This document shows, piece by piece, positions 29,241-47,858 of a stretch of DNA of 64,000 nt. Where the stretch lies: assembly GCA_937903325.1 (NCBI GenBank), contig CALCZR010000058.1, positions 65,034 to 129,033 of the forward strand, written 5' to 3'. The first letter of the stretch is position 1. Every line of letters starts with the position of its first letter. The stretch comes from an uncultured Candidatus Saccharibacteria bacterium (GTDB taxonomy: Bacteria; Patescibacteriota; Saccharimonadia; Saccharimonadales; AWTP1-31). The notes below the pieces were generated by a model. That model was given only the letters and a program-made list of their open reading frames with translations. It ran no database searches and was not told the DNA's origin. The position numbers and the translations under genes were made by a program.

Positions 29241-29609
29241 CTAACTTGTATACTTCTTGACCGCATCAACGATCTGGTAGGGGCTGTAGTCAGCCTTTAG
29301 GAGGTAATCCGTAGCGCCAAGCTTCTTAGAAGCTGTCACAACTTGTTCGTTATCTATATTACTAAGCACCAAGATTACCGCCTTGGGTAGCTTCAATGCC
29401 TTGTACTGCTTAAGAAAATCTATGCCGTCCTGCTCAGGCATGAGCATATCCACGAAAATAACGTCTGGTTCTTCCTTTTGAGCTATCTCTAGAGCATCCG
29501 TAACTCGATTGGCAACGAAGGCCTTGTGCCCAGCCTTTTCCAGTACCTGACTATATACTTCCGTCAGAACTTGTTCGTCGTCTATTACTAATATCTTCAT
29601 AGCACTCAT
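29241..29609 (-). CDS. single-domain response regulator (CheY-like receiver only)
   Basis: Acidic pocket in ILVIDDE, phospho-acceptor Asp in IFVDMLMP, and Lys in LLKAD. No output domain. Confidence 0.9.
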   Translation of the reverse strand: MSAMKILVIDDEQVLTEVYSQVLEKAGHKAFVANRVTDALEIAQKEEPDVIFVDMLMPEQDGIDFLKQYKALKLPKAVILVLSNIDNEQVVTASKKLGATDYLLKADYSPYQIVDAVKKYTS

Positions 29610-29612
29610 GGT

Positions 29613-30857
29613 CTAGTCGCGGTGTAGCGCCTCAATTGGATCGATCATAGTAGCTCTTCGAGCAGGGAAGAAGACGACAATAAGGCCGATAAGAGCACTG
29701 AGAGCAAGAGTTATGAGTATCAGCTCGGCCGAGAAGCTAAAGGCCGTTATATGGTCCTTAACGCCGTTATGCTGGGCGTACCTATTGAGTGCAAAGTTAC
29801 CGATAACCGACAAGGTTATAGCCCCGATAACACCGAATAATCCACCAAGGAACGATAGCAGTACCGCTTCAGTTGTAAATAGCCGACGGATGTCTTGCTT
29901 ACGAGCACCAAGCGAGATCATGAGAGCAATCTCACGAGTTCGCTCAATGAGCGAAATGGTCAGAGTGTTAAACATACCCAAGATCGCAATCACAATACCG
30001 ATACCGCCAAAGCCTACAAAGACGTATCGCAGCAGATTAAAGACCTGGTCAATCTGTTCTAGCGTGTCTTGCGGTGAGGTTGTCGTAAAGCCAAGGCTCT
30101 CAATAGCCTTGCGCACACTGTTGATCTTGTCCTTGTCATTAACCACTACTTTCAGCTGGGTGGCGTCTGCTGTTCCGACTTGTTCAAAGTTCTTAGCAGC
30201 GATAAAAGATTCAGCCCGTGACTCACTCTCGAATACCGCCCCAATAACAAAGTCTTTGGTAACAGTCTTCTTTTCACCCTTGTCATTCACCGTATCGAAC
30301 GAAAGATTAACTGACTTATCGATAGCCTTACTGTTATCACTAAAGCCCAGCACGTTAGCTAATGAATTATTAATAATAATCTTGTTGCCGGTATCGGCAT
30401 CAAAGTTATTACCAGCTGTATACTTCAGCCCGCTTAGATCTACAAAATTGGTATCAGCACCATATACTACCGTCTCGGTCTGGGAGCTCTGCTGCTTAAT
30501 CTTACCAGCGGTGTTATACGACCTACCCATCTCATCAACGCCGCCCATACCACTAATCTGGTTGTAAGCTTCGGTGTTTAGCTTGAGGATCTTAGAACGC
30601 GGGGACGTAACATCTATGGTTTGCACTGAACTAGATCCTACCACTTGCTGGCTTACGAGGTTCTGCAGTCCAAAACCAAATGAGAAGAGGAACACAATAG
30701 AACCAATACCAATAATCACAGCTAGAACGGTGAGCATAGTACGGAGCTTGTTAAAGAACAAGTTCTTGTAGGCTAGCCGCATAAGAATATGGAACTGAAT
30801 AACACCACGCTTGTCGGCGGCACGAAATTCACTACCGTTACGTACGTTATTAACCAC
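29613..30857 (-). CDS. MacB/FtsX-type ABC transporter permease with large extracytoplasmic domain
   Basis: NKLRTMLTVLAVIIGIGS in TM1, then a ~230-aa loop, then the FtsX domain (LISLGARKQDIRRLF). The GTG at 30857 has GAGGTGAT upstream; an alternative ATG lies at 30782. Confidence 0.9.
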   Translation of the reverse strand: MVNNVRNGSEFRAADKRGVIQFHILMRLAYKNLFFNKLRTMLTVLAVIIGIGSIVFLFSFGFGLQNLVSQQVVGSSSVQTIDVTSPRSKILKLNTEAYNQISGMGGVDEMGRSYNTAGKIKQQSSQTETVVYGADTNFVDLSGLKYTAGNNFDADTGNKIIINNSLANVLGFSDNSKAIDKSVNLSFDTVNDKGEKKTVTKDFVIGAVFESESRAESFIAAKNFEQVGTADATQLKVVVNDKDKINSVRKAIESLGFTTTSPQDTLEQIDQVFNLLRYVFVGFGGIGIVIAILGMFNTLTISLIERTREIALMISLGARKQDIRRLFTTEAVLLSFLGGLFGVIGAITLSVIGNFALNRYAQHNGVKDHITAFSFSAELILITLALSALIGLIVVFFPARRATMIDPIEALHRD

Positions 30858-31635
30858 CGATCACCTCTTTTGCTGACTTACTTAGCTTCATCATACTAGC
30901 AACTTTGTTAAACTGCTGGTTAATGTCCGCACGGTAACCACCTTGATCCTCGGTCACGACACCGTCACTAATATACAAACGGTGGTCACTAAGCGGCAGA
31001 TAGTCGCTGTTGTGAGTAACCAGAATAATAGTGGACTGGTGTTCGCTCTTGTAGCTGGTAATAAGCCGCATAATCATATCACCATTCTTGCTATCGAGGT
31101 TTCCGCTTGGCTCGTCAGCTACGAGTAGCAGGGGAACAGAGACCGTGGCACGGGCCATGGAAATACGTTGTTGCTGACCAACAGACAAGACCTGGGGACT
31201 GTAGTTAGCATACTTATCGAGCTCAACACGCTTTAGACTGTCTCGAGCCTCCCTAAAGGCAGCATCCCGATCATGTCCGGACAAGTACAATGGAAGAGCA
31301 ATGTTCTCGAGTACGTTAAGACTGGATACCCAGTTATTGGTCTGGTAGACAGTGCCGAAGTTTCGAGCGCGGAACTTGGCCCGATCGTTCTGGTTAAGCT
31401 TGTATAGGTCTTCGCCGTCCACAATAATCTGCCCAGAACTCGGCGCCAACAGTCCGAGAATCATATTCAGAATCGTCGTCTTACCACTACCGGATGGACC
31501 ATAGATGATCGTGAAGGTATTACGCTCAATCGTAAAGCTCACATCCTTCAGAACTGAAACGGTTCCTTCTTGGGTGGTGTACTGTTTGTTGACATTGACC
31601 AACGAAACAAGAGTATTACTAGCGGGTTTACTCAT
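30850..31635 (-). CDS. ABC transporter ATP-binding protein (MacB/LolD-like)
   Basis: Walker A GPSGSGKTT, Q-loop, signature LSVGQQQR and Walker B LLVADEP. Confidence 0.95.
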   Translation of the reverse strand: MSKPASNTLVSLVNVNKQYTTQEGTVSVLKDVSFTIERNTFTIIYGPSGSGKTTILNMILGLLAPSSGQIIVDGEDLYKLNQNDRAKFRARNFGTVYQTNNWVSSLNVLENIALPLYLSGHDRDAAFREARDSLKRVELDKYANYSPQVLSVGQQQRISMARATVSVPLLLVADEPSGNLDSKNGDMIMRLITSYKSEHQSTIILVTHNSDYLPLSDHRLYISDGVVTEDQGGYRADINQQFNKVASMMKLSKSAKEVIGG

Positions 31636-31676
31636 AGATTAGTACCAGTATATCTGTTAAACGTAAGCATTACCAA

Positions 31677-34600
31677 TTAATTTCGCCTTCCAAATATCGA
31701 CTCAAGGGCATTGAAGATGATAGTAAAGACATTTTCAGAGGCGCGGCCCACTACTACCGTCTGATTATCTGAATGTGAAATATTACGCGCTTTATCTGCC
31801 GAGAAGACTTGCAAGTGGTAGATACTCGAAACCTGTACGTCAGACAACACTACGACATGGTCAGTCGTCAGGTTATTGTCTTCGCCAGTACGATTCGTGA
31901 GTGCACCCGTTTGGCCAATACCGTAGCCTACCTGGCTAGTAGATAGCTCATCCGTCTTCCAGGAAACCACTACTTGACCTCGAGCCTCTGAGCCAGTTCC
32001 ACGAACAGACGATTCTATAACTACCTCAGATATCTTTGGTGGGCGAGTATCCAGGGCCGTCTTAAAGGTCCGTACTTCGGAGCTCGCACTAATACCTTCG
32101 GCATTCACCGATATAGCCTGTAAGGCGTAGTCAGTGTCATCGACAAGGCCAGTAAGGACAATGCTGTGCTGCGTGACAAGTGCGGAATCAACAGCGTCCT
32201 TAGGTGGTGTGCTCTGTGGTCCGTAACTTACCCGCGAAGTAGCCGGTACGTTGGTATCCCAGGTAATCTGCTGAGTAGAACTTGGAGCGTCTGCGACGGG
32301 CTGGAATCGCAAGTTTGTAATCTTTGGTCGTGCCTTGGTGGTAAAGGTTTGTACATCCTTGATATACAAGTTGCCGTCAGCGTCCACTAGATCAATCCGG
32401 AAATAGAACTTCGTATCGTCAGATAAACCGTCAAGGTTAACTGAGTACGTAGAAGTTGTAGCTGCCGTATCAATAGTCTTAACAGCACCGAAGGACTCAC
32501 TGGCACCGTAACTCAGTCGAGCCTGACTAGCCCCCGTAACTGAGAAGGAAATAGTTGCACCGGAAACACTAACACCTGTTATCGCCACTTCACCAACATT
32601 CGGAGCGGGAAGCGTCGTAAAGCTCTTCTCCGGGCTGGTGCCCGTATTACCATCACTGTCCGTCCACTTGGTTACATAGTAGTAGGTCGTAGAAGGCTGC
32701 AGGTTAGTCAGATCTACCTGGTGGTCAGGTTGTTGGGCAGAATTACCGATCTCTTGCTGGGCGTATTGCCCCGGCGCTGTGCCAATAGCGACCTTACTGT
32801 CGCTGTCTCTATCTGTTGTCCAGGTGATGGTAGCCTTCTTGGGGCCAATATTCGTTGCCTTTGGTTGGCCAGAAACTGTTAAGTTAGCAGGACTAGTGAA
32901 GCGACCGGTTGGCTTCTTGGTTGCCACGTTGCTCGGAACACCACAGTTATTAGCGTTGTCACAAGCTCGGACGTAGTAATAGTAGGTAATTTGGGACAGG
33001 CCAGCATCGATAAAGCTCAGGTTAGAAGGTGAGGTAGTACCCACCTGCGTGAAGCTAACATTGTCGGTGGAACGATAAATCTTGTACGAGGCTATGCCAC
33101 TCCCTGGCTGCGACGGCGCTACCCAAGAGCTTGCCAATTTCCAACTGGAGGTTGCTCGTGTAGAGACATCTGCTAGATCCATGTCGGTAGGAGCACCAGG
33201 AGCCGTCGTACTGGCAGAGAAGGTGACGGTAGCAACATTGGCCGCACTAAAGTTACCCGGCTGGTCCTTGGCAACTATCCGCATCGTGTTTACACCTTGC
33301 TCAGTAGCGTACGGTCCGGCCGCTAGCTGAGTTACGCCAGCACCCGTCCAGTGACAATTACTCTGGTCATCTTCAATGGGCTCATTCACTGTCCAACAAT
33401 AGTTTATATCTGGGGTCGACCCAGAGAAACTAGAGGGAGCATCCCACGTAAACGAGAAATTATTACTAGTACTGCTAGATGGGGTAACCTGTAGGTTCTG
33501 TGGTGCAGAAGGAGCCTGCACAGAAATGACCACGTAAGGGGCTGATGAAGCCATTCCTTCGACATTACCGGCATTATCTACTACGGCCATAAGCACCCCG
33601 TTAACTCCAGAACCGCCTGTAGTGCCGTCATCGAGTCGAGCAGCGTCGGCTGCCACAGTGGTAAAGCCTTGAGCACTCATAGGCAATACATCACTAGTAT
33701 CCCGTAAATCCCCCGACGTATGGTTTGCACCGTACCAGTTCATATCGTCTTCGTCACATCCTGCAAAGTTTTCGTCTACCTTTGCAACACAGTACTTAGC
33801 ACCAGCGATACCTGAGTGTTCATCAACAGCTTCAAGTAGTCCCGGCACAATGGTCCATGCAGTGGTGAATATCTTGCTGTTCTGGACCGTACCCGGCGTG
33901 TTATAGAAAACCATGCCGTCCGGTTCTTCATCATCAAACCTAAAACTGGTAGTAATCAGCGGATCACTCTGCGCGTTGCCAGCGTTGTCTACTGCAGCGA
34001 TTCTAACGTAGTAGCGCTCACCAGACGTCATGTTGCCCGGCGCCGCCTGAGCAAGATCTAGATACGTGTTACGCGTACTAAAACCACAATCCCCTACGAT
34101 ATAATTATTAAGCGCGTCTGAACCCAATACACCCTGTTCACCTAGACTACCCGGGTCTTCCTGTGTACCTACATACACACAGTAGCCAGCGATACCTGAA
34201 TCAGCATCAGTTGCGGCCGTCCAACTTACATAGGGCTTGAGTCGGACCCAACCATCTGGTGCTACAACCGGACCAGAGCTAGATTTTTTAATAGTCAGAC
34301 CACTTGGTACGCCTGGGGCATTCGTGTCATTAGAGTACTCGATACTAACGGAGTTAACACTAATGTCAGGCGTAGCCTCGTCGGACAGAATAATCTGGTA
34401 CTGCACATACCGCTCATTCAATGCTACACATGCAGTAGCCGTGATAGCATCGCCACTAGCAAGTAGTGGGCAGTCATTAAAGTCCTTAGCACCAGCCATA
34501 GAGTCGCTTGCTGAAGTACGTACCCGTATACCCGATATTCCTGTCCCACTTGTATTGTAGATGACATTACCGAAGTAGGGGTGTTCGTCAAAGTCAACGA

Positions 34601-36257
34601 TCGCAGAGGTGAGTCGGCCAACACCACCACCGTTAAATTCGGTCAATCCCAATGAGGACACGATCACTCTATGGGTATAAGAATAGGCTATGATCGACCT
34701 AAGTTTCGATTGTCTACCACCACCACTGAAACTAATACTTTGATTCACCGAGTAACCAAAAGAACGACTGAGACCCGGTATTGTCTGGTATGTTAAGCCG
34801 CCATTACTGCTATATGTCAGGTCTGCGCCATATCCCGATTGACTACCGTAACGGACCATACGGAATCGGTACCATGTATCAAGTTGAAAATGTGTCGCTC
34901 GGAGCTGATCCCAGTTGTAGCTCGTTCCTTGGGGACCGCTTATGTGGAAATAATTCCCATCATCACAGCCGATGTCCACTCCAAATATAAGCTTGTACCC
35001 AGCATAGTTACTAGAATTACAGTCGCCAGGTGCTACCTGAAGGTCGAATTCTACGACTGCATCTTTTGAGTCATCCAAGCCATTCATGGCATTGAAACTC
35101 GCACCGTCATACAATGTTGCAGTATCCCCGGTAATACTAAACCTGGCAGGGTCGTCCCACTGGTACCACTGCCAAGGACTTGGCAGACCCGTACCGAGAT
35201 TAGCATCGTTATAGTACGTACCCAGCAACCCTTGAACCGTGTTACTAGTATCGGGGTCTACGGCCGTTAGTACACTAGAGGGCACCGTCTCAATCGAGAT
35301 AGCGTTACTTGACCAACGTAACTGTGCATACCCAGGACCAGACTGCTGCTGATACTCTATACGTATATCATGCTCTCCTGCCGTAAGAGAGATGATCTGA
35401 GCGGTCGAGGTAGGACCGCCCCAGCTTCCAAACAGCGGGTTGCCGTCCACGAACATTCGGTTCCCATCGTCACTCGATATGTAAAACGTATAATTATCGT
35501 CAGCCGGGATAGTAATCTTACCCGTCCAACGCACACTCCAGTTATCGGCGCCAACTCCAGTAATTGGTGACGTACCGTTCAAGGCAAAATCAATGTTTGC
35601 GTCAATCCTTGTTGCTGCCGGGGTACCCGCACTTGCAAAATTATCCTGGAAGAGCAGGCTGCTTTTGGCTGACCCCGTGCTAGCAGCCCCATTGCCAAAA
35701 TACACATACATATTGTTGGCTCCACTGTAAATATTAGTAGGGCTAACAACATACTCTGCAGAGACCCCGTCGGTCTTAGCGTTTAGATAGAAACCGACAT
35801 CGTATGCACCGTCCTGACTTACAAACCGAATGTCGTCAAAGTCATTCTGCATAGCCGCATCGTATGGAATTGTTATACGGAACGCTGTCGAGGCAAGGAA
35901 ACCATTGTCCAAATTAGTTGCGGTAAACAATTTACGACGAGTCCAACTGCTATTACACTTAGCCGTATTACACCAGTCAGCATTAACCTGATTACCAATC
36001 GCAAGTGTCGCTCCAGCATCCATATTAGTGGCTTCGCTATACTGAGAACTTGGATCAGTTCCAACGCCGCCCGACCAGTCATTCTGTGTATAGGTACTTA
36101 ACGCACTTACCGTTGCCTTATCGATAAGGGGGAAGGCGATCGTTGCGAGCAACACGACGGCCAGACCACCTGCCACAACTCGCTTACTTCGCTCGACCGC
36201 TCGAACTCTTCGTCCAGCCTGCAAGAATTTCTGACCAATAGTACGTACTAATTTCAT
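31677..36257 (-). CDS. giant membrane-anchored surface protein (1526 aa): DUF2341-like, PA14, LamG-like and multiple FN3 domains
   Basis: N-terminal TM helix and a QNDWSGGVG motif. DFDDIRF...YVYFGN is DUF2341-like. NWSVRWTGKI..YTFYISSDDGNRMFVDG..IRIEYQQ is PA14. FN3 repeats include YKIYRSTDN and ITWTTDRDSDSKV. Confidence 0.9.
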   Translation of the reverse strand: MKLVRTIGQKFLQAGRRVRAVERSKRVVAGGLAVVLLATIAFPLIDKATVSALSTYTQNDWSGGVGTDPSSQYSEATNMDAGATLAIGNQVNADWCNTAKCNSSWTRRKLFTATNLDNGFLASTAFRITIPYDAAMQNDFDDIRFVSQDGAYDVGFYLNAKTDGVSAEYVVSPTNIYSGANNMYVYFGNGAASTGSAKSSLLFQDNFASAGTPAATRIDANIDFALNGTSPITGVGADNWSVRWTGKITIPADDNYTFYISSDDGNRMFVDGNPLFGSWGGPTSTAQIISLTAGEHDIRIEYQQQSGPGYAQLRWSSNAISIETVPSSVLTAVDPDTSNTVQGLLGTYYNDANLGTGLPSPWQWYQWDDPARFSITGDTATLYDGASFNAMNGLDDSKDAVVEFDLQVAPGDCNSSNYAGYKLIFGVDIGCDDGNYFHISGPQGTSYNWDQLRATHFQLDTWYRFRMVRYGSQSGYGADLTYSSNGGLTYQTIPGLSRSFGYSVNQSISFSGGGRQSKLRSIIAYSYTHRVIVSSLGLTEFNGGGVGRLTSAIVDFDEHPYFGNVIYNTSGTGISGIRVRTSASDSMAGAKDFNDCPLLASGDAITATACVALNERYVQYQIILSDEATPDISVNSVSIEYSNDTNAPGVPSGLTIKKSSSGPVVAPDGWVRLKPYVSWTAATDADSGIAGYCVYVGTQEDPGSLGEQGVLGSDALNNYIVGDCGFSTRNTYLDLAQAAPGNMTSGERYYVRIAAVDNAGNAQSDPLITTSFRFDDEEPDGMVFYNTPGTVQNSKIFTTAWTIVPGLLEAVDEHSGIAGAKYCVAKVDENFAGCDEDDMNWYGANHTSGDLRDTSDVLPMSAQGFTTVAADAARLDDGTTGGSGVNGVLMAVVDNAGNVEGMASSAPYVVISVQAPSAPQNLQVTPSSSTSNNFSFTWDAPSSFSGSTPDINYCWTVNEPIEDDQSNCHWTGAGVTQLAAGPYATEQGVNTMRIVAKDQPGNFSAANVATVTFSASTTAPGAPTDMDLADVSTRATSSWKLASSWVAPSQPGSGIASYKIYRSTDNVSFTQVGTTSPSNLSFIDAGLSQITYYYYVRACDNANNCGVPSNVATKKPTGRFTSPANLTVSGQPKATNIGPKKATITWTTDRDSDSKVAIGTAPGQYAQQEIGNSAQQPDHQVDLTNLQPSTTYYYVTKWTDSDGNTGTSPEKSFTTLPAPNVGEVAITGVSVSGATISFSVTGASQARLSYGASESFGAVKTIDTAATTSTYSVNLDGLSDDTKFYFRIDLVDADGNLYIKDVQTFTTKARPKITNLRFQPVADAPSSTQQITWDTNVPATSRVSYGPQSTPPKDAVDSALVTQHSIVLTGLVDDTDYALQAISVNAEGISASSEVRTFKTALDTRPPKISEVVIESSVRGTGSEARGQVVVSWKTDELSTSQVGYGIGQTGALTNRTGEDNNLTTDHVVVLSDVQVSSIYHLQVFSADKARNISHSDNQTVVVGRASENVFTIIFNALESIFGRRN
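32590..33205. repeat. high-identity segment shared with the upstream paralog (partner 37165..37790)
   Basis: About 620 bp that align with only scattered mismatches by eye. The encoded FN3 region is nearly identical (ADMDLADVS.RATSSWKLASSW...ITWTTDRDSDSKVAIGTAPGQYAQQEIGNS). Confidence 0.8.
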
Positions 36258-39200
36258 TCCTTGACTCCAAATATTTTCTGCAGGGCGTTATATATAATAC
36301 TGAATACATTGTCTGAACCGCGTCCGATAATCACAGTCTGCGGATCAGAGACCCTGGCGTTAACCGCTTTATCTCGGCTGACGGGCTGCACGCGGTAAAT
36401 ACTCGAAGTAGGAATATCTGACACGATAACGGTGTGCTCAGTGGTTAATCGAGCGTCTTCCCCAGTTTTGTTGTTAAGCGATCCTTCCTGCCCCTGGGCG
36501 TAGTTGACCTGACTCGTAGAAGGTTCATCTGTCTTCCATGAGACCACTATCTGTCCTCGGGCCTGTAAACCACTACCACGAATAGTTGATTCTATCTGCA
36601 CGTCACTAATCTTTGGAGGGCGAGTATCAAGTGCAGTATGAAAATTCTGTACGTCTGAAGCAGCCCCGTTACCAAGTGCATCTGTACCGGCAGCTACCAG
36701 GGTATAGTCCTTGTCATCCTGGAGGTTCTCCATGGTAATAACGTGTTCTGTCGTCTGCTTGGCATCTAGCTGTTCTGTCTGCTTGGCACCCTTGACGCCG
36801 AAAGTGATACGAGAATCTGTTGCTACGTTGGTTGTCCAGCTAACCTGTAAGGTACTCTTTGGTGCGTCAGTAACAGGCTGGAAACGAATATTAGTAATGG
36901 CCGGTCGGGGTGGAGTAGTGAAGCTATACACATTGCTGTCGTATTGCTGTCCGTCGATGTCAAACATAAGGAGACGGTAGTTGTACTTAGTGCCGTCTTT
37001 TAAGTCCGGCAAACGTACAGTGTACTGAGAAGAGCGGGTTGCGGTATTAACCGTTAGTGAGCGGTCATAGTTGTCGTTGGCTCCGTAGAGGACCACTACT
37101 TTAGTGGCATTAGCTGCTGTAAAGGTTAGGTCTCCGTAGGTATTAGTTAGACCAGAAACGCTAACTTCGCCAACACTTGGCGCAGCCAAGGTTGTGAAGC
37201 TCTTCTCGCTACTTACACCAGTGTTGCCATCCGTATCAGTCCATTTAGCAACATAGTAATATGTTGTACCTGGTTGTAGGTTGGTCAGGTCTACTTGGTG
37301 GTCAGGTTGTTGGGTGGAATTACCGATCTCTTGCTGGGCGTATTGTCCGGGCGCTGTACCAATAGCGACCTTGCTGTCGCTATCTCGGTCGGTTGTCCAG
37401 GTAATAGTAGCCTTCTTTGGACCAATATTAGTGGCTTTTGGCTGACCAGAGACCGTTAGATTAGCGGGGCTTGTAAACCGTCCTGTCGGTTTCTTGCTGG
37501 CAGTATTGCTTGGGATACCGCAGTTATTAGCGTTATCGCAAGCCCGGACGTAGTAGTAATACGTAACCTGGGAAAGGCCAGCATCGATAAAGCTCAAGTT
37601 AGAAGGTGAAGTAGTACCTATTTGCGAGAAGTTAACATTATCTGTAGAACGGTAAATCTTGTACGAAGCTACACCGCTGCCGGGTTGCGTTGGGGCAGAC
37701 CAGGAACTAGCCAATTTCCAACTGGAGGTTGCCCGACTGGAAACATCTGCCAGGTCCATATCGGCAGGGGCACCAGGAGCGGAAGTATTAGCAGTGAAGG
37801 TTACACTGGCCGCATTATTAGACGAAAAGTTTCCTGTCTGGTCTTTAGCCATGACGTAGAGAGTGTTTGTTCCTTGTTGCGTAGCATACGCACCAGCCGC
37901 CAGTTGCGTAATACCCGCACCAGTCCAGTGGCAGTTTGATCCGTTGGCCGCAATAGGAGTGTTGATACTGTAGCAGTAGTCCATCTGATTAAGCGGACCT
38001 GTGAACGTTTCAGGCGGAGACCAAGAAAAACTAAAGTTGTTCTGTGCACTGCTAATCGGCGATGCCTGGAGATTTCGCGGTACAGAAGGCGGATTTTGGG
38101 TAATAAATATGTACCCAGCTGAGCCGTCACCCGCTCGTGCATTACCAACATTATCGATAGCAGCAACATAGATAATATTAAAGCCAATACCGTTACCGAA
38201 GGCTCCGCCGTCGCTACCGTCATCCAGTTCACCTGCAGCTTCAGGACCAACGTCTATTCGACTAGCGGAGAAGGGTATAGTGTTTGTAGAGACGTTGGCA
38301 TAGCCCTTGGTTTTGTCCGCACCAAACCAGTTTGGAGCACTCGGATCACAGTAATCATCCGGATCAATACCGCCTTCACCGGTATACTTAGCGATACAAT
38401 ATTTGAGACCTGCTACGCCTGAGGCACTATCATAGAGCGAGCCCAGAGGCGGTCCTATCCAAGAAACGGTGAAATTCTTACTACCAAGAGTACCTGATGG
38501 GAATGAGAATATGGTACGAACTTCTGGGTGCTGAGTGTCAGCTTTTAACGTTAGTGTACTCGAGGCTCCGATATTGCCAAGGTTATCTACCGGAGCTACT
38601 ACGAAGTAGTACGTATCACCATTATTAAGACTAAAATTATTAAACTCCTGTTTGTCTAGAGAGGTACCCGCCCTGGCGTACGCACATGAGGTTTGTATAG
38701 GGCTAGTGGTGCTATTCGAAAGCATTCCGCCCGTTTGAGTCAACGACGGTGACGAGTCTTGCCCAAGATACAAACAGTACCCAGCCAAGCCGGAGCCACC
38801 ATTTTCATCCGTTGAAGCATCCCAGCTGAAGTAAGGCCTGTCCTGGACCCAACCACCGTCTGCTACTGTGAAGCCATTTACGCTGGTCTTCATAGTTAAG
38901 CCGGTAATACTGCTTGGCGCAGTCACATCGGAGTCATACTGCAAGGTAATACTCGTAAACTCGGCGTCCCGAGCATTATTTGTTGTTAGCATAATCTGGT
39001 ACTGCATGTATGCTTTGCCTGTAGTTACACAACTTGAATTCTGAATGTCCTGCTCGTCATACAAGGTATTACAGGTGGCAAAGTCAGCGGCGTCACTCAT
39101 ATCAGATTGATTCGCTGTACGTATCTTAACGCCAGCCTGGCCGTCGCTATAGCCTAAGAAGATCTTCCCAAAATGTGCTCCGCTAGGGAGGGGGATCGCC

Positions 39201-40465
39201 GCTGAATTGAGTGTTCCTGCATACCCGTTGTACTCTTCGGTAACGCCAGCCTGAGCAGTTACCCCCAATGCCGAGTGATATGCGACTACATTGCGAATTA
39301 GCTTCTCCGCATTAGCACCACTCATATTAAAATATATGTAATCGGTATCACCATACTGCATCGGCAGATCAAGGCCAGTAATCTTTGTGTAGGTCTGGCC
39401 ACCGTCGGTACTAAAATAGTGGGTGTTGTAGTGGTAAGAGGGCCATTGGCCATTCGTACGCTCAACAACACTCCTCACAATCTTAAATCGATACCAGGTA
39501 TTGTAGTTAAAATCGAGCGCACTGGCCATTGCACTGTTAGCATAATCAAACTGGACACCCATGCTACTAGATACCCCAGTATTTCTATTACAACGGTGGT
39601 CGGCATAGCTATTAAACTGTATCCTTCCGTTCATACCGAACCCATCCGTATTAAAGTCTGAGGCGCCCCGACAGTCATATTGACTGCCATCAATCTGCAC
39701 ATCGAATTCAAGTACAGACTCCTGTCCAGTAGTATATTGTCCGGTTGTAGGCAGATTATCATATGCGTGGAGCCGGACAGTATCACCAGATAGTGTCGCA
39801 TTAGTACCGCCCCACTGTGGACCTAGTACTCCGTCACTAAAGTTGTCCTGCAGGTCTACGATTGATTTCGTAGACAACGAGCTTGCACCGGTATTACCGA
39901 AGTACATAGCAATGCGTGAAAGACCATATGGAATATCTGCAACCTTGACGTACACAACCGCCGAAACACCGTCCGTCTTGCTTTGTACCCAATATGGTAC
40001 ATCTTGGTCGCCCGTTTCGTTGGTAAAACGTAGGTCATCAAAGTCAGCCTGCATGGCAGCATCGTACGATACATTAATCTTTACCGTTTCGTTGGTATAG
40101 GAAGGTACTCCATTACTAAGAGTATTGAATTGAATCATCTTTCGATATGTCCAGCTACTACTACATTCGCTTGTTGCACACCACGCTACTCCAGCCGTAT
40201 TACCAACGGTCAAAGTGCTACCATCAGTAATATTATCTGCCGATGCATACTGATTTATCGGGTTGGCCCCAACTCCACCGGACCAATCGTTCTGGACAAA
40301 ATCCACGTAGGCGTCAGCTCGGCTATAGTAGAGAACAGGGGCAACAATCGTAGCAATAAGCAGCAGAGCGAGCGCACCGGCAGCCATCCGGCTCTTTGGC
40401 CGCTTCAGAGCATTCCGAAGCTTATTCCAATTACCGTTTAACCGTTGTGCCATCTTCAGCTTCAT
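36254..40465 (-). CDS. giant membrane-anchored surface protein (1403 aa): DUF2341-like, LamG-like and multiple FN3 domains
   Basis: Paralog of 31677..36257 with the same N-terminal TM helix, QNDWSGGVG and DFDDLRF..MYFGN. It lacks the PA14 segment. ATGA overlaps at both gene junctions. Confidence 0.9.
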   Translation of the reverse strand: MKLKMAQRLNGNWNKLRNALKRPKSRMAAGALALLLIATIVAPVLYYSRADAYVDFVQNDWSGGVGANPINQYASADNITDGSTLTVGNTAGVAWCATSECSSSWTYRKMIQFNTLSNGVPSYTNETVKINVSYDAAMQADFDDLRFTNETGDQDVPYWVQSKTDGVSAVVYVKVADIPYGLSRIAMYFGNTGASSLSTKSIVDLQDNFSDGVLGPQWGGTNATLSGDTVRLHAYDNLPTTGQYTTGQESVLEFDVQIDGSQYDCRGASDFNTDGFGMNGRIQFNSYADHRCNRNTGVSSSMGVQFDYANSAMASALDFNYNTWYRFKIVRSVVERTNGQWPSYHYNTHYFSTDGGQTYTKITGLDLPMQYGDTDYIYFNMSGANAEKLIRNVVAYHSALGVTAQAGVTEEYNGYAGTLNSAAIPLPSGAHFGKIFLGYSDGQAGVKIRTANQSDMSDAADFATCNTLYDEQDIQNSSCVTTGKAYMQYQIMLTTNNARDAEFTSITLQYDSDVTAPSSITGLTMKTSVNGFTVADGGWVQDRPYFSWDASTDENGGSGLAGYCLYLGQDSSPSLTQTGGMLSNSTTSPIQTSCAYARAGTSLDKQEFNNFSLNNGDTYYFVVAPVDNLGNIGASSTLTLKADTQHPEVRTIFSFPSGTLGSKNFTVSWIGPPLGSLYDSASGVAGLKYCIAKYTGEGGIDPDDYCDPSAPNWFGADKTKGYANVSTNTIPFSASRIDVGPEAAGELDDGSDGGAFGNGIGFNIIYVAAIDNVGNARAGDGSAGYIFITQNPPSVPRNLQASPISSAQNNFSFSWSPPETFTGPLNQMDYCYSINTPIAANGSNCHWTGAGITQLAAGAYATQQGTNTLYVMAKDQTGNFSSNNAASVTFTANTSAPGAPADMDLADVSSRATSSWKLASSWSAPTQPGSGVASYKIYRSTDNVNFSQIGTTSPSNLSFIDAGLSQVTYYYYVRACDNANNCGIPSNTASKKPTGRFTSPANLTVSGQPKATNIGPKKATITWTTDRDSDSKVAIGTAPGQYAQQEIGNSTQQPDHQVDLTNLQPGTTYYYVAKWTDTDGNTGVSSEKSFTTLAAPSVGEVSVSGLTNTYGDLTFTAANATKVVVLYGANDNYDRSLTVNTATRSSQYTVRLPDLKDGTKYNYRLLMFDIDGQQYDSNVYSFTTPPRPAITNIRFQPVTDAPKSTLQVSWTTNVATDSRITFGVKGAKQTEQLDAKQTTEHVITMENLQDDKDYTLVAAGTDALGNGAASDVQNFHTALDTRPPKISDVQIESTIRGSGLQARGQIVVSWKTDEPSTSQVNYAQGQEGSLNNKTGEDARLTTEHTVIVSDIPTSSIYRVQPVSRDKAVNARVSDPQTVIIGRGSDNVFSIIYNALQKIFGVKE
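37165..37790. repeat. high-identity segment shared with the downstream paralog (partner 32590..33205)
   Basis: See the partner entry at 32590..33205. Confidence 0.8.
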
Positions 40466-41133
40466 AGGGTATATGCCTTCACAATTCCCGCCGTAGGTCG
40501 GACGCTTAGTAGATTAGTCCCCAGGGCTTTACTGGACATCAGGAAGGCAGTGAAATACTGCGTTATTTCGCCGCGCCTATCTGCTGGCAATGCAGAGACG
40601 TTAGTTGTAGTAGAGGCAAGTTGGGCCGCTTTCTTGTTTGAGTAATACTCTATGCGCAGCGACGATGGCTTAGGAATACTCGTCTGCGTCTCATACTCAA
40701 CATCTTTGCCTTCTGCTTCCTTATTGCCAATCGCATAGCTATCCTTGTAGTGCTCGAGTAGGGCATCGTTTAGCTTTGTAATTTTAGCTGAATCAGTATC
40801 TGAGGCATAGACCGTTACCGTAAGTGTATTAGCTGTTCTTCGCTGGCCCACGAGCTCGTATCCAGAAGTGCCGACTGGGGCAGGAATAGGGTTCTCCAAT
40901 TTCTGAGCAGGCAATGTCTGTACCTTTGCTGCTGGTTTGCTAGTTTTCTTTGCTTCCTTCTTACCACCTGGCCATACCAGCAATCCAACCCCAGCAACCA
41001 CCAGCACAACTAATGCTGCGTATATGGGGTAAATTCTACGTTTACGAAGAAGCTTAATATGTACTGCCTTATGCCAATAATGGCGATATCCAGTGGCGAG
41101 TAGCAGTACCACAACAATGCCTAATACAATCAA
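40462..41133 (-). CDS. membrane-anchored hypothetical protein; first gene of the giant-protein operon
   Basis: 223 aa with two N-terminal hydrophobic segments. TTG start at 41133. Its stop overlaps the next gene's ATG (ATGA). Confidence 0.55.
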   Translation of the reverse strand: MIVLGIVVVLLLATGYRHYWHKAVHIKLLRKRRIYPIYAALVVLVVAGVGLLVWPGGKKEAKKTSKPAAKVQTLPAQKLENPIPAPVGTSGYELVGQRRTANTLTVTVYASDTDSAKITKLNDALLEHYKDSYAIGNKEAEGKDVEYETQTSIPKPSSLRIEYYSNKKAAQLASTTTNVSALPADRRGEITQYFTAFLMSSKALGTNLLSVRPTAGIVKAYTL

Positions 41134-41144: not shown

Positions 41145-41192
41145 CGCGACTATATACTTGACAAACCTAGCAGATAAAACTACACTGTAGAT

Positions 41193-42068
41193 ATGAGCTT
41201 GCTAGACTTCCAGAACCAATTCAAGACTGAAGAAGCCTGTCACACATTCCTTGAGGAACAACGCTGGAAGAATGGCCGTTTTTGCCCTCATTGTGGCACG
41301 TATGAGACGTATAAGTTTAAAGACGGCAAACTATTCAAGTGTCAGGACTGTAAAAAACAGTTCACTGTTAAGGTTGGTACCATATTTAGCGATAGTCACG
41401 TCCCGCTGACTAAATGGTTCTACGCGATTTATCTTAATACCTCCCTCAAAAAGGGCATTTCCTCAATCCAACTAAGCAAGTATCTCGGTATTACTCAAAA
41501 ATCAGCCTGGTTTATGCTCCAGCGCATTCGTTACGGTGTTGAAGCTGCTGGGCGCAGCGACCTACTAAATAACATTGTTGAAGTGGATGAAACCTATGTT
41601 GGTGGTAAACAAACGGGTGCACGTCGTGGCCCCGCCGATAAGGCTGTGGTCTTCGGTGCAGTTGAGCGTGGCGGTAAAGCCATGATTAAACATGTACCAA
41701 GTTCAGGCGTGCGTGTACTCATACCTGAGATTCATAAGAACATTAGTCCTGAAGCTACTATATATTCTGATCAATACGGGTCATACAAAAGCCTAAAGCG
41801 TCGTGGCTATACACATACTACCGTTAACCACTCAAAGCTGGAGTTTGCTCGCGGGCTAGTTCACACAAACACAATTGAAGGAGCTTGGGCACACTTCAAG
41901 TTAGGCATCGCAGCCATTTACCTAGGCGTTAGCGTTAAGCATTTACAGCTTTACTGTAGTGAGTTTGAATACCGCTATAACACCAAAGAGATGACTGACT
42001 ACGAACGATTCACGAGTTGGTTTGGTAACTGCCGAGGCCGTGTTACCTACAAAAAACTAATAGCTTAA
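41193..42068 (+). CDS. IS1595-family (ISXO2-like) DDE transposase
   Basis: Zinc ribbon CPHCG..CQDC, then GISSIQLSKYLGITQKSAWFMLQRIR, DETYVGG, IYSDQ and NTIEGAWAHFK. About half the residues match the transposon 1 transposase by eye. Promoter layout: TTGACA, 17 nt, TACACT, 6 nt, ATG. Confidence 0.9.
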   Translation: MSLLDFQNQFKTEEACHTFLEEQRWKNGRFCPHCGTYETYKFKDGKLFKCQDCKKQFTVKVGTIFSDSHVPLTKWFYAIYLNTSLKKGISSIQLSKYLGITQKSAWFMLQRIRYGVEAAGRSDLLNNIVEVDETYVGGKQTGARRGPADKAVVFGAVERGGKAMIKHVPSSGVRVLIPEIHKNISPEATIYSDQYGSYKSLKRRGYTHTTVNHSKLEFARGLVHTNTIEGAWAHFKLGIAAIYLGVSVKHLQLYCSEFEYRYNTKEMTDYERFTSWFGNCRGRVTYKKLIA

Positions 42069-42206
42069 TCCTCCAAAACTGCCATTTTTATTGCTATTGT
42101 TCTTTGCCCCCATGGGCGAGGGCAAGAATGCGCTTGTGTCAAACTGTTAATTTCAGAATATATTGGTACCTACCTTTAAATAATACGGGTAGGAGGGTTT
42201 GGCAAA

Positions 42207-43070
42207 ATGAAACTAACGCAAATTCCAAAAATAACCTATAAACAAAGAACAATACTAGATCTCATATATACCCATAGATTCCTTACTAGAATACAAATAC
42301 AGACATTCCTAAAACATAAAGATAAAAAGACTATTAACCTGTGGCTTAAAGATCTTAGAGACAAAGAATATATAAATTGGATCTACAATAAAGATCACTT
42401 TGCTGAGAAAACTAAACCAGCTATCTACTACTTAGGCATTAATGGTATACGGCATATGCAGAATATGGATTTCCATCCAGACAAAGAAATTCATAAACGC
42501 TACCGGGAACACGAACGCAGCCAGGGCTTTATTGATCGTAGCCTTCTGCTGGCAGAAGTCTGCTTAGAGCTTGATGACGAACGAAACGGCAGCTACTACA
42601 TGACAACACGGTACTACTACGAGACTGAGGCCGATTACCGTAGTGAGATGCGTTACCATTTCTTGAGCGACAACGAGCTAATCCACCCCGATATATGTAT
42701 TGCTCAGTCAGAGGGTGATACAGATGACAGCATTGGCGATCCCGACACCACCGTAGCAAGCTACTTACTGGAGATCTTTGATGCTACATTGCCGAGGTAC
42801 CGTTTACGCAACAAACTGAAGAAGTACGTACAATATCTAGAGGAAGAATTAGACGAATGGGATGAACAGACGGGCAAAGATCCAAGACCGACTATATTAC
42901 TGGTCTGTGCTAGCCTCACAGACCTCATCTACGCTAAACGTAGAACCAGAGGGCTGTTGGCAGAAATCTGGGAGTATGATGACGAAGAAAGACCGCAAGT
43001 GCGGTTTACGACTGTAGGGAATCTCAAAGACAATGGCGTACTTTCCGAGGAGAGTTGGGAGACGGCGTGA
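42207..43070 (+). CDS. replication-relaxation-family-like protein
   Basis: ITYKQRTILDLIYTHRFLTRIQIQTFL..WLKDLRDKEYI (winged-helix pattern). AGGAGG Shine-Dalgarno site upstream. Same position as 14819..15655 in transposon 1. Confidence 0.7.
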   Translation: MKLTQIPKITYKQRTILDLIYTHRFLTRIQIQTFLKHKDKKTINLWLKDLRDKEYINWIYNKDHFAEKTKPAIYYLGINGIRHMQNMDFHPDKEIHKRYREHERSQGFIDRSLLLAEVCLELDDERNGSYYMTTRYYYETEADYRSEMRYHFLSDNELIHPDICIAQSEGDTDDSIGDPDTTVASYLLEIFDATLPRYRLRNKLKKYVQYLEEELDEWDEQTGKDPRPTILLVCASLTDLIYAKRRTRGLLAEIWEYDDEERPQVRFTTVGNLKDNGVLSEESWETA

Positions 43071-43114
43071 GTAGCGTGCTCAACTCTTATTACTCCATAT
43101 GCCCCAAGTTGGTA

Positions 43115-44446
43115 CTAGAACCTTTTGATACTCCCGTGGTTATTTCTTCTCAGTACAGTAATACTCAGACGATATCGTAGTAAGGGTAAGGTGACTATTT
43201 TGATGTGGTGGCCAAAGGTATAAGGAATAGTCGAGTCTTCCTCAGTAAGTGGTTTCTTATGACGTCGGTAGTCTATATAGATATATACCGTTAAAGCCAC
43301 TAACAAGCCAATGAAGAGTAGACTTGGAAGAAGAACGCCGCCAGTAACTGCTAATGTTGGCTGTTTTGTATCGGGGCTGGTAGGACCCGTTCCTGGGTTT
43401 GGTGTTGGCGTCGGGCTGGGTTCTGGCTCTGGTTCGGGATCTGGGATGAGGCGAGATACACCAATCTTATTCACGCCTGGAGCGGATTCTACAAACCAAA
43501 TACTGCCGTCGGTGCCTGCGGCAATACTATTGGGATATGATGCTGGCGTTGGAATATCATACTCAGTGACCGTACCAGAGGTAGTGATCATAGCTACCTT
43601 GTTATTAAATAGTTCGGTTACCCAAAGATTGCCGTCTGAACCTACCGTAATGTTTCTGTAATAACCAAATGTTTCACCCGTCAATCCTGGGACTGCAGTG
43701 AAGTTTCCATCAACGGTAATCTTTCCAACTTGATAGATGCCTGTACCTGCTACACTGACCCATAGATTACCATCTGGGCCTTGGGTAATGCCAGATGGAT
43801 ACCCGCTTCCACTCGGCAGGCTGTACAGTGTGACGTTTCCATCAACGGTGATCTTTCCAACTTCCTGCGTTCCAAATTTGGTAAACCACAGATTTCCATC
43901 CGGACCGGTTGTTATGGTACCTAGATCAAACGTACCGGTATTAGCAACGGGATACTCGGTAACCACTCCGGCAGTAGTCATTTTACTTATCTTCCCTTCC
44001 TCTGACTGGGTAAACCACAGATTTCCATCCGGACCGGTTGTTATGCTATTTAAGTATGCATTAAGGTTGCCGACGGGATATTCAGTAACAACTCCTGAAG
44101 TAGTGATCTTACCTATTTTATCTATATTCCTTTCTACAAACCACAAATTACTATCCGGGCCAACGGTTATCTCGTTTAACCCGGAACTTGGGGTTGTGAC
44201 TGGATACTTCGTTATGCTTCCGCTAGGCGTAATCACCCCGATCTCGTTAGAACCTACATCGGTAAACCACATATTATTATCGGGGCCACGAACAATTGAC
44301 CCAAGGCCTACGTTGTCGCCACTGACAGGATATTCTTGAATTTCACGTCCTGCGGCGTAGACGGCAGGGAGCAACAATGATGCTGAAAGAATCATGCAAA
44401 ACGCCAGAAGCGATAAGCTGACAATCCGATGTTTCATTGTAATCAT
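43115..44446 (-). CDS. secreted seven-repeat beta-propeller protein (Vgb/streptogramin-lyase-like repeats) with LAVTG-type anchor
   Basis: Signal peptide, then seven G[PST]D[GSN][NS][LMI]W[FV] repeats and a Pro-rich linker (PEPEPEPSPTPTP). The end is LAVTG, a TM helix and RRHKK. I chose the ATG at 44446; the track's TTG is at 44482. Confidence 0.8.
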   Translation of the reverse strand: MITMKHRIVSLSLLAFCMILSASLLLPAVYAAGREIQEYPVSGDNVGLGSIVRGPDNNMWFTDVGSNEIGVITPSGSITKYPVTTPSSGLNEITVGPDSNLWFVERNIDKIGKITTSGVVTEYPVGNLNAYLNSITTGPDGNLWFTQSEEGKISKMTTAGVVTEYPVANTGTFDLGTITTGPDGNLWFTKFGTQEVGKITVDGNVTLYSLPSGSGYPSGITQGPDGNLWVSVAGTGIYQVGKITVDGNFTAVPGLTGETFGYYRNITVGSDGNLWVTELFNNKVAMITTSGTVTEYDIPTPASYPNSIAAGTDGSIWFVESAPGVNKIGVSRLIPDPEPEPEPSPTPTPNPGTGPTSPDTKQPTLAVTGGVLLPSLLFIGLLVALTVYIYIDYRRHKKPLTEEDSTIPYTFGHHIKIVTLPLLRYRLSITVLRRNNHGSIKRF

Positions 44447-44566
44447 ATCCCTTATGGTATTTGATGGGTAGAGACTCGTCAATGAAGTAGCATACTAGAG
44501 CATCAGACTTGATGCAACATACAAATATGCTTATACTTAATGCTAAAGATGTGAGGTGAAATAAAT

Positions 44567-47365: not shown

Positions 47366-47542
47366 CTGCCTACAGAGTGCGCTCCTGAATACAGAAACGT
47401 TCGCTGACATAATCAATGTACTGCACTGTGATAGTCTACTATGCGAATACACTGGCAATGACGGTTTTCCGACATAGTTTTGGGCACATGTACTGATTGC
47501 GTTGCCGTTAAGCACAATGACTTGTTGCACAGTAAGTTTGAT

Positions 47543-47833
47543 TCACAAGTTGACAATGACCGCAAAATAAAAAACAAGCAATGCACCCACCTTCAGTAAA
47601 AATTTAGCAGCATACTTTTTGTTTGCAAATCGAATTATATTGAAATCTAAGTGATAAACTGTACATATGACAGACCAGCATAAGCTTAAGCCAATAACAA
47701 TTGCAAAATTTACGAAGGTTGTTGAGATACTGGCCAGTACAGCCCCTATTAGCAATAAGGAGATCCTCAAAAGATCTAAGAAGAGTAAGAAGAAATAGAT
47801 TATTCCAGACACAAGAAGGTGATCACTATTCAT
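47543..47833 (-). CDS. small hydrophobic membrane protein next to the right repeat of transposon 2
   Basis: 96 aa with 3 hydrophobic helices. The ATG is 2 nt from the right inverted repeat. Its counterpart lies at 17531..17797. Confidence 0.5.
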   Translation of the reverse strand: MNSDHLLVSGIIYFFLLFLDLLRISLLLIGAVLASISTTFVNFAIVIGLSLCWSVICTVYHLDFNIIRFANKKYAAKFLLKVGALLVFYFAVIVNL

Positions 47834-47858
47834 TGGGTGTGTAAACTATATAGGTGCG

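Follow-up and report, generated by a model that had tools for sequence, protein, structure and literature searches.

The DNA analyzed in this work, hereafter the window, is a stretch of 64,000 nucleotides (nt) from an uncultured Candidatus Saccharibacteria bacterium (NCBI GenBank assembly GCA_937903325.1, contig CALCZR010000058.1, positions 65,034 to 129,033 of the forward strand). Matches in a genome collection likewise assign it to Candidatus Saccharibacteria. It carries two giant genes, named A and B here, which are arranged in tandem with a 4-nt ATGA overlap and encode proteins that share one tract of nearly identical amino acid (aa) sequence. The history of this tract, which covers a pair of FN3 domains, is the subject of this work. 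The two genes (identified from the list of open reading frames, ORFs, and by Pfam) and the segments shared between them are as follows.

31677..36257, minus strand: gene A, encoding 1526 aa; N-terminal membrane anchor, DUF2341-like region, PA14 (aa 203-326), FN3-type repeats, C-terminal region conserved
36254..40465, minus strand: gene B, upstream of A, 1403 aa, with DUF2341 (aa 141-212) and FN3-type repeats but without PA14
32610..33203, minus strand: tract copy in gene A, aa 1019-1216, two predicted complete FN3 domains
37187..37780, minus strand: tract copy in gene B, aa 896-1093
31922..32081 versus 36499..36658, minus strand: a second, weak patch of similarity between A and B, 160 nt, 73.8% DNA identity, at A aa ~1393-1445

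A protein identical to protein A (P0001) is present in public assemblies; an exact look-up gave no contig for P0001 but did so for P0002, P0090, and P0091. In orthologue comparisons, gene A is under purifying selection.

At the protein level, A and B are 48% identical over most of their length (blastp), and this identity is distributed unevenly. In a codon-aware alignment, A aa 1013-1212 has 84-98% amino acid identity, compared with 20-55% nearly everywhere else. The best-scoring identity segment is the tract, in which 180 of the 198 residues are identical (91%), compared with 40-42% in the flanks and 63% in the C-terminal region (C2). An earlier reading of the window, made from the letters alone (the sequence-only reading), had placed the shared tract at essentially these coordinates, had described its FN3 pair as almost residue-identical, and had proposed a sliding identity check on the two genes, which found non-uniform identity. 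It had also described the flanks as far more diverged and different in domain content, consistent with the flank identity of approximately 40% and with the Pfam detection of PA14 in A only.

The same reading had described the tract as near-identical DNA with scattered substitutions, and this part does not hold. By blastn, A and B align over 776 nt with 76.3% identity (E = 3e-164), and a repeat finder reported one direct repeat (32587-32886 versus 37164-37463) with a spacing of 4577 nt and 79% identity. The tract copies agree at 471 of 594 bases (79.3%), with a longest exact run of 29 nt, which is also the longest exact word common to both genes. The 123 base differences fall mostly at third codon positions (96), with 18 at first and nine at second positions. 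Since 123 of 594 bases differ and the proportion of synonymous differences (pS) is 0.69, the near-identity is a property of the protein, not of the DNA. No third copy of the tract was found in the window, and its GC content, overall and at third codon positions (GC3), is unremarkable, giving no compositional sign of foreign origin.

The tract corresponds to a pair of FN3 domains. Pfam matches within it are fn3 (PF00041) and Pur_ac_phosph_N (PF16656), and a sequence search of PDB gave a weak match to the DCC FN3 domain 2ed9. An AlphaFold2 model of A aa 1010-1226 has a predicted local distance difference test (pLDDT) score of 91.9 and contains beta-sandwiches at approximately A aa 1024-1114 and 1133-1214. 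A Foldseek search with this model returned 492 matches at E <= 0.001, and the top matches listed were tandem FN3 pairs (integrin beta4, titin, DCC, and neogenin). As modeled, the tract spans two whole FN3 domains, and in this it resembles the tandem FN3 modules of bacterial and eukaryotic extracellular proteins. However, its sequence identity to any solved structure is only 14-20%, such that no function is transferable. The first FN3 domain contains a two-cysteine loop, 'ACDNANNCG' (A aa ~1097-1105), which is almost invariant in all aligned Saccharibacteria homologues. Unlike known FN3 modules, this loop is specific to the Saccharibacteria giant-protein family; it could form a disulfide or bind a metal or ligand.

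Silent sites in the tract are close to saturation. Nei-Gojobori estimates for A versus B are pS 0.69 (synonymous divergence, dS, ~1.9) and a proportion of nonsynonymous differences (pN) of 0.057 in the tract, compared with pS 0.78-0.80 and pN 0.41 in the flanks. The ratio of nonsynonymous to synonymous divergence (dN/dS) is ~0.03 for the A-B tract and ~0.02-0.05 for orthologues. At identical residues, A and B use the same codon in 85 of 175 cases within the tract (49%) and in 198 of 473 cases outside (42%); the expectation from codon usage is ~36% (62.7/175), and old pairs have same-codon fractions of ~0.32-0.45 over the same columns. These codon comparisons show that purifying selection on the tract is strong, and in both proteins the FN3 pair appears to be the module under the tightest constraint. 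Because the synonymous sites have diverged, recent conversion is excluded.

Comparison with other Saccharibacteria was used to separate constraint from shared history. In the tract, homologues from other Saccharibacteria genomes have 46-68% identity to A or B. Percent identities between the two members of each tandem pair, for the tract and for the segments labeled mid2, C1, and C2, are given below.

Window A/B: mid2 41, tract 91, C1 40, C2 63
L002: mid2 46, tract 63, C1 51, C2 52
L004: mid2 43, tract 56, C1 52, C2 61
L039: mid2 48, tract 68, C1 57, C2 63
L042: mid2 52, tract 68, C1 53, C2 63

The excess identity of the window pair over the four other tandem pairs (+0.19 to +0.51) is found only at A aa 1021-1200 and has sharp edges on both sides. 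Once the other tandem pairs are subtracted, the identity gradient on the 5' side of the window pair is ordinary family conservation. The second patch (31922..32081) has an amino acid excess over the other pairs of only +0.11 to +0.16 and is probably ordinary family conservation as well. In the flanks, the A-B identity given above compares with 43-47% identity to L001, L002, and L004. Two orthologue pairs, L007-L008 and L001up-L002up, provide a calibration: their tracts are 92% identical with pS of 0.67-0.68 and same-codon fractions of 0.50-0.51, while their C1 flanks are 86-95% identical, versus 40% for A-B. By these measures, A and B look like sister-species orthologues in the tract and like ancient paralogues in the flanks.

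Consistent with a separate history of the tract, A and B have in common there 14 residues that no other lineage has plus 16 rare ones (together 30 of 194), compared with 11 of 184 shared derived or rare residues in C1 and 17 of 344 in mid2. A and B are no closer to outgroups than L001 and L002 are, which argues for shared history rather than a slowdown. In neighbor-joining trees, the grouping of A with B has 100% bootstrap support in the tract and 13-33% in mid2, C1, C2, and mid2+C1. Among informative amino acid sites of the quartet A, B, L002up, and L002dn, the tract has a 16/3/3 split that favors A with B, whereas the flanks (mid2+C1+C2) have 16/18/16, which is a star pattern. The ratio of the A-B distance to the distance between the window lineage and L002 is 0.21 in the tract (bootstrap confidence interval, CI, 0.12-0.30) and 1.03 in the flanks (CI 0.93-1.14). 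These comparisons of aligned sequences show that the tract has a younger common ancestor than the flanks.

The timing of the event can be approached from the window haplotype (W) and two relatives recovered from public assemblies, namely, S2 (L037, ~82-89% DNA identity) and S3 (L038/L050/L052). The lineage occurs in the samples SRR6231133, SRR6231148, ERZ650287, SRR28520273/276/278, and SRR21076684. In the tract DNA quartet W_A, S2_A, W_B, and S2_B, 63 sites group the orthologues, seven group genes of the same genome, and four give the cross pattern; for two further quartets, the corresponding counts are 57:9:5 and 50:6:8. In the tract tree, bootstrap support is 94% for the A-type clade and 99% for the B-type clade, and both S2 and S3 have kept an A-type tract that is distinct from the B-type one. 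W and S3 have the same gene B at the DNA level (100% identity); in the A tract they differ by 11.6%, and A-type residues are still present there. Between W_B and S2_B, the tract has pS 0.57 and pN 0.02. Since the sites group by orthologue (63:7:4), the exchange predates the W, S2, and S3 haplotypes; these site patterns show that the event is old. With dN as the clock, a rough estimate places the A/B split in the tract several-fold further back than the W/S2 split, at approximately one-fifth of the depth of the split from L001/L002. No sign of continuing homogenization was found among the three haplotypes. The conversion proposed in the sequence-only reading is thus retained in part: the tract does have a younger, separate history (A+B bootstrap 100% versus 13-33%), but a recent or continuing process is not supported (pS 0.69; 63:7:4).

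S3 is 100% DNA-identical to the window over the full 4212 nt of B (L050 and L052) and the first ~1200 nt of A; over the rest of A, identity falls abruptly to 72-89% and is interrupted by blocks of 99-100%. Between S3 and window gene A, pS is 0.58 in aa 401-760 and 0.62 in aa 1401-1526. This mosaic indicates recent allelic recombination inside gene A. The window and S2 are likewise mosaic, with 70-100% identity in A and 67-96% in B.

Taken as a whole, we consider it probable that the tract results from an old gene conversion between paralogues over one FN3 pair, followed by very strong purifying selection. Under this explanation, a segment of ~0.55-0.6 kb encoding one FN3 pair would have been copied from one gene into the other, after the lineage had split from its nearest sampled relatives (L001/L002) and before W, S2, and S3 diverged. 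The likely route would be homologous recombination between directly repeated genes, that is, non-reciprocal gene conversion. Both copies would then have diverged almost to silent saturation while the protein was held nearly constant. The event may have been limited to the FN3 pair as the best-conserved stretch, which would favor pairing, and homogenization there would be harmless. We infer that both proteins may use the FN3 pair for the same task, e.g., a common stalk or docking function.

Several points weigh against this explanation. The silent contrast within the pair is weak (pS 0.69 in the tract versus 0.78-0.80 in the flanks, all near saturation), the difference in same-codon fraction (49% versus 42%) is roughly estimated as not significant, and matches at fourfold sites are 42% in the tract versus 30% in the flanks. 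The flank trees lack resolution and do not positively conflict with the tract tree, such that A+B is unsupported there but not formally rejected, and the distances are Kimura-corrected p-distances with neighbor-joining rather than likelihood codon models. There is no signal for the donor or the direction of transfer, with the tract being 64-66% identical to both copies of L001/L002. No sampled genome has a tract identity between 68% and 90%, which leaves the event unbracketed. In related searches, whole protein B found no relative between 46% and 90% identity, a scan of JGI metagenomes found no close relatives (best match 55%), and the results for whole protein A were swamped by unrelated PA14 proteins. 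For the flanks, orthology of A or B with the L002 'up' and 'dn' genes has weak support only (B with dn, bootstrap 51-64%).

The main rival is a whole-gene duplication at the date of the tract, after which all but the constrained FN3 pair diverged fast under relaxed or diversifying selection. This would be compatible with the divergence levels, as with dS ~2 the flank dN of 0.47-0.66 needs a dN/dS of only ~0.25-0.35, and mid2 does outpace the tract in some orthologue pairs (86% versus 97% identity in W_B-S2_B and 68% versus 92% in L007-L008). Moreover, the flank trees do not formally reject A+B, and with more distant genomes, the members of a tandem pair tend to cluster together over the full length (e.g., 17/2/1 in mid2 for L039 versus L042). 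However, a duplication predicts a long flank branch shared by A and B, where we found star-like quartets (16/18/16) and bootstrap values of 13-33%. The C1 rate is also close to the tract rate in orthologues (95 versus 97%, 96 versus 97%, 95 versus 92%, and 86 versus 92% identity), and yet C1 of A and B is 40% identical. Judged by eye, the terminal flank branches of A and B exceed those of the L002 genes only slightly, whereas this rival would need a several-fold excess. We consider this rival improbable.

Selection alone would offer another account, in which A and B would be old paralogues over their full length, with an FN3 pair too constrained to diverge. The silent sites near saturation with a protein that is 91% identical fit this account, as does the same extreme constraint in the S2 and S3 orthologues (pS up to 0.57, pN 0.02), and within the family, none of the tandem pairs examined has a part that is better conserved than the tract. 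The sequence-only reading had named diverged synonymous sites and equal conservation in orthologues as the pattern that would speak against conversion; half of this pattern is present, in that the synonymous sites are diverged (pS 0.69). However, the tract is not frozen in other species (46-68% to A or B) or in the other tandem pairs (56-68%), the outgroup distances give no lineage slowdown, and the 30 shared derived or rare residues of A and B would need massive convergence. An origin by selection alone is therefore very unlikely.

The sequence-only reading had regarded the tract as a likely hotspot, and recent or continuing concerted evolution would make it an active one for conversion, deletion, fusion, and assembly collapse. 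The arrangement of the genes is suitable, being in tandem and in direct orientation at a distance of 4577 nt, and the L010 tandem pair has lower pS (0.24-0.6). Silent matches within the tract are marginally clustered in a GENECONV-style permutation test (best segment p = 0.018, around 'GQYAQQEIGNS.QQPDH'; longest run p = 0.10), which leaves room for a smaller second event that is not established. However, the 123 differences in 594 bases, the longest exact run of 29 nt, the orthologue grouping of sites across haplotypes (63:7:4), and the 100% identity of B between W and S3 next to an A tract that differs by 11.6% with A-type residues all stand against continuing exchange. Given 79% identity and exact matches of no more than 29 nt, both RecA-type recombination and k-mer collapse are expected to be inefficient. 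No fused, chimeric, or collapsed A/B alleles were found, as B is followed by A in all independent short-read assemblies (approximately eight samples), in which rare variants may go unseen. Neither the hotspot for deletion or fusion nor the risk of assembly collapse finds support in these assemblies, and an ongoing process is scarcely credible. The chance that the duplicated tract is an assembly or binning artefact is negligible, since the copies differ at 21% of bases and are not one sequence placed twice, and different samples, processed with different assemblers, independently yielded the same two-gene structure. Nothing was found in favor of an artefact, which was considered because repeats can be chimeric in metagenome-assembled genomes.

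Similar patterns exist elsewhere in the family. The tandem pair of L010 (6848..16014), from another Saccharibacteria genome, is a mosaic with 97% identity and pS 0.44 in the tract, 98% and 0.34 in the C-terminal region (C2), 80% and 0.58 in C1, 71% and 0.70 in mid2, and 20-35% identity with saturation in mid1. This stepped silent divergence suggests several conversion events or a young partial duplication. With L010 as a second, independent case, the aligned pairs raise the prospect that homogenization of the C-terminal FN3 part may recur in the giant-protein family of Saccharibacteria. P0003 (an 899-aa fragment from a Logan contig) is a distant homologue that has a PA14 domain like gene A (40-49% identity), but downstream of PA14 it is nearer to gene B (0.41-0.60) than to gene A (0.21-0.45). 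This pattern suggests domain shuffling within the family. The other giant genes of Saccharibacteria that were compared gave no match to PA14.

Genes A and B are part of a larger gene cluster, for which the remaining members are listed below.

40462..41133, minus strand: small ORF, 223 aa, with a hydrophobic N-terminus and a 4-nt overlap with the start of B
30850..31635, minus strand: ABC transporter ATPase (Pfam ABC_tran, E = 6e-30), directly downstream of gene A
29613..30857, minus strand: MacB/FtsX-type permease (Pfam MacB_PCD and FtsX), downstream of the ATPase
29241..29609: response regulator, after the permease in the gene order of the window

The order of giant gene(s), ATPase, and permease recurs in L002-L014, L039, L042, and L043, with one giant gene per locus in some Saccharibacteria genomes and two in tandem in others. 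The response regulator follows the permease both in the window (operon 29241..41133) and in L043. The 223-aa ORF, probably the first gene of the operon, has no Pfam match, and many related loci have an ORF of ~200-290 aa at the corresponding place upstream. The start/stop overlaps at 40462-40465 and 36254-36257 suggest translational coupling. Scanning the operon for promoters and terminators gave about as many matches as expected by chance. A and B are best explained as old paralogues of a Saccharibacteria surface-protein operon that would consist of a small membrane protein, B, A, an ABC ATPase, and a MacB-type permease. We regard as speculative, with a low but real chance of being correct, the idea that the FN3 pair is a shared docking module for the operon machinery (e.g., the periplasmic domain of the MacB-type transporter or the small upstream membrane protein). 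In Saccharibacteria with two tandem giant genes, such a module would be repeatedly re-synchronized by conversion, independently in the window lineage and in L010, while domain shuffling and recombination between alleles diversify the host-facing N-terminal parts.

Directly adjacent to the operon on its upstream side, a segment of 6.7 kb (41145..47857) is absent in S2 (L037) and in contigs L050 and L052. At least its operon-proximal end is present in L049, L051, and L053, which carry a gene B that is identical at the DNA or protein level. The segment looks like a recent, polymorphic mobile-element insertion, and its gene content is as follows.

41193..42068: IS1595-family transposase
42207..43070: Replic_Relax protein
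43115..44482, minus strand: Vgb-lyase-like beta-propeller
44567..47365: 932-aa ORF without Pfam match

Among known systems, tufA and tufB are the classic case of prokaryotic concerted evolution. The closest analogue of the window pair is the segmental concerted evolution of the Helicobacter pylori bab and hom genes. According to the review PMC3960876 (citing Pride and Blaser, 2002), the 5' and middle regions of these paralogues are similar between strains and a 3' segment is similar within a strain. Like babA/babB, homA/homB, and sabA/sabB, genes A and B are patchwork surface-protein paralogues with one segment homogenized (in H. pylori by RecA-type intragenomic recombination) and others diverging. 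In contrast, the homogenized segment of H. pylori groups by strain, while the window tract groups by orthologue across haplotypes (63:7:4). Conversion in H. pylori continues in vitro and in vivo and chimeric alleles occur, whereas the window tract is near silent saturation and no chimeras were seen. Moreover, conversion affects the 3' end of genes at separate loci in H. pylori and an internal FN3 pair of adjacent genes in the window.

More generally, prokaryotic paralogues can be closer to each other than to orthologues, sometimes recurrently (survey PMC6053082). The window pair resembles these cases in that paralogues of the same genome are more alike than orthologues of other species, and in the recurrence in the window lineage and L010. 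However, the surveyed cases are usually whole core-pathway genes kept near-identical in DNA, whereas only ~13% of a giant surface-protein gene is involved in the window, apparently by a single event in the lineage, after which DNA identity has fallen to 79%. For large DUF2341/FN3 proteins, also from Patescibacteria, it was proposed, without tests, that they function in adhesion or host interaction (PMC11809585). Those proteins belong to the same phylum-level group and are likewise very large, with DUF2341 and FN3, and presumed to be at the cell surface; they differ in size (>4000 aa) and lineage, paralogue conversion was not reported there, and the window genes are linked to a MacB-type ABC transporter. 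We found no literature specific to FN3 surface proteins of Saccharibacteria.

For sequence scans, these results are a caution that a near-identical repeat at the protein level can mask 21% DNA divergence, and telling conversion from constraint took orthologue calibration rather than a dot-plot. The mechanism proposed is textbook, ordinary bacterial gene evolution and leaves current understanding unchanged. The tract itself would be the most strongly constrained module found in a giant, uncharacterized Saccharibacteria surface-protein family with a conserved MacB-type operon, and it provides a defined target of 200 residues for binding-partner or structure work. If the shared docking idea is true, the tract would mark how Saccharibacteria epibionts assemble their surface apparatus.

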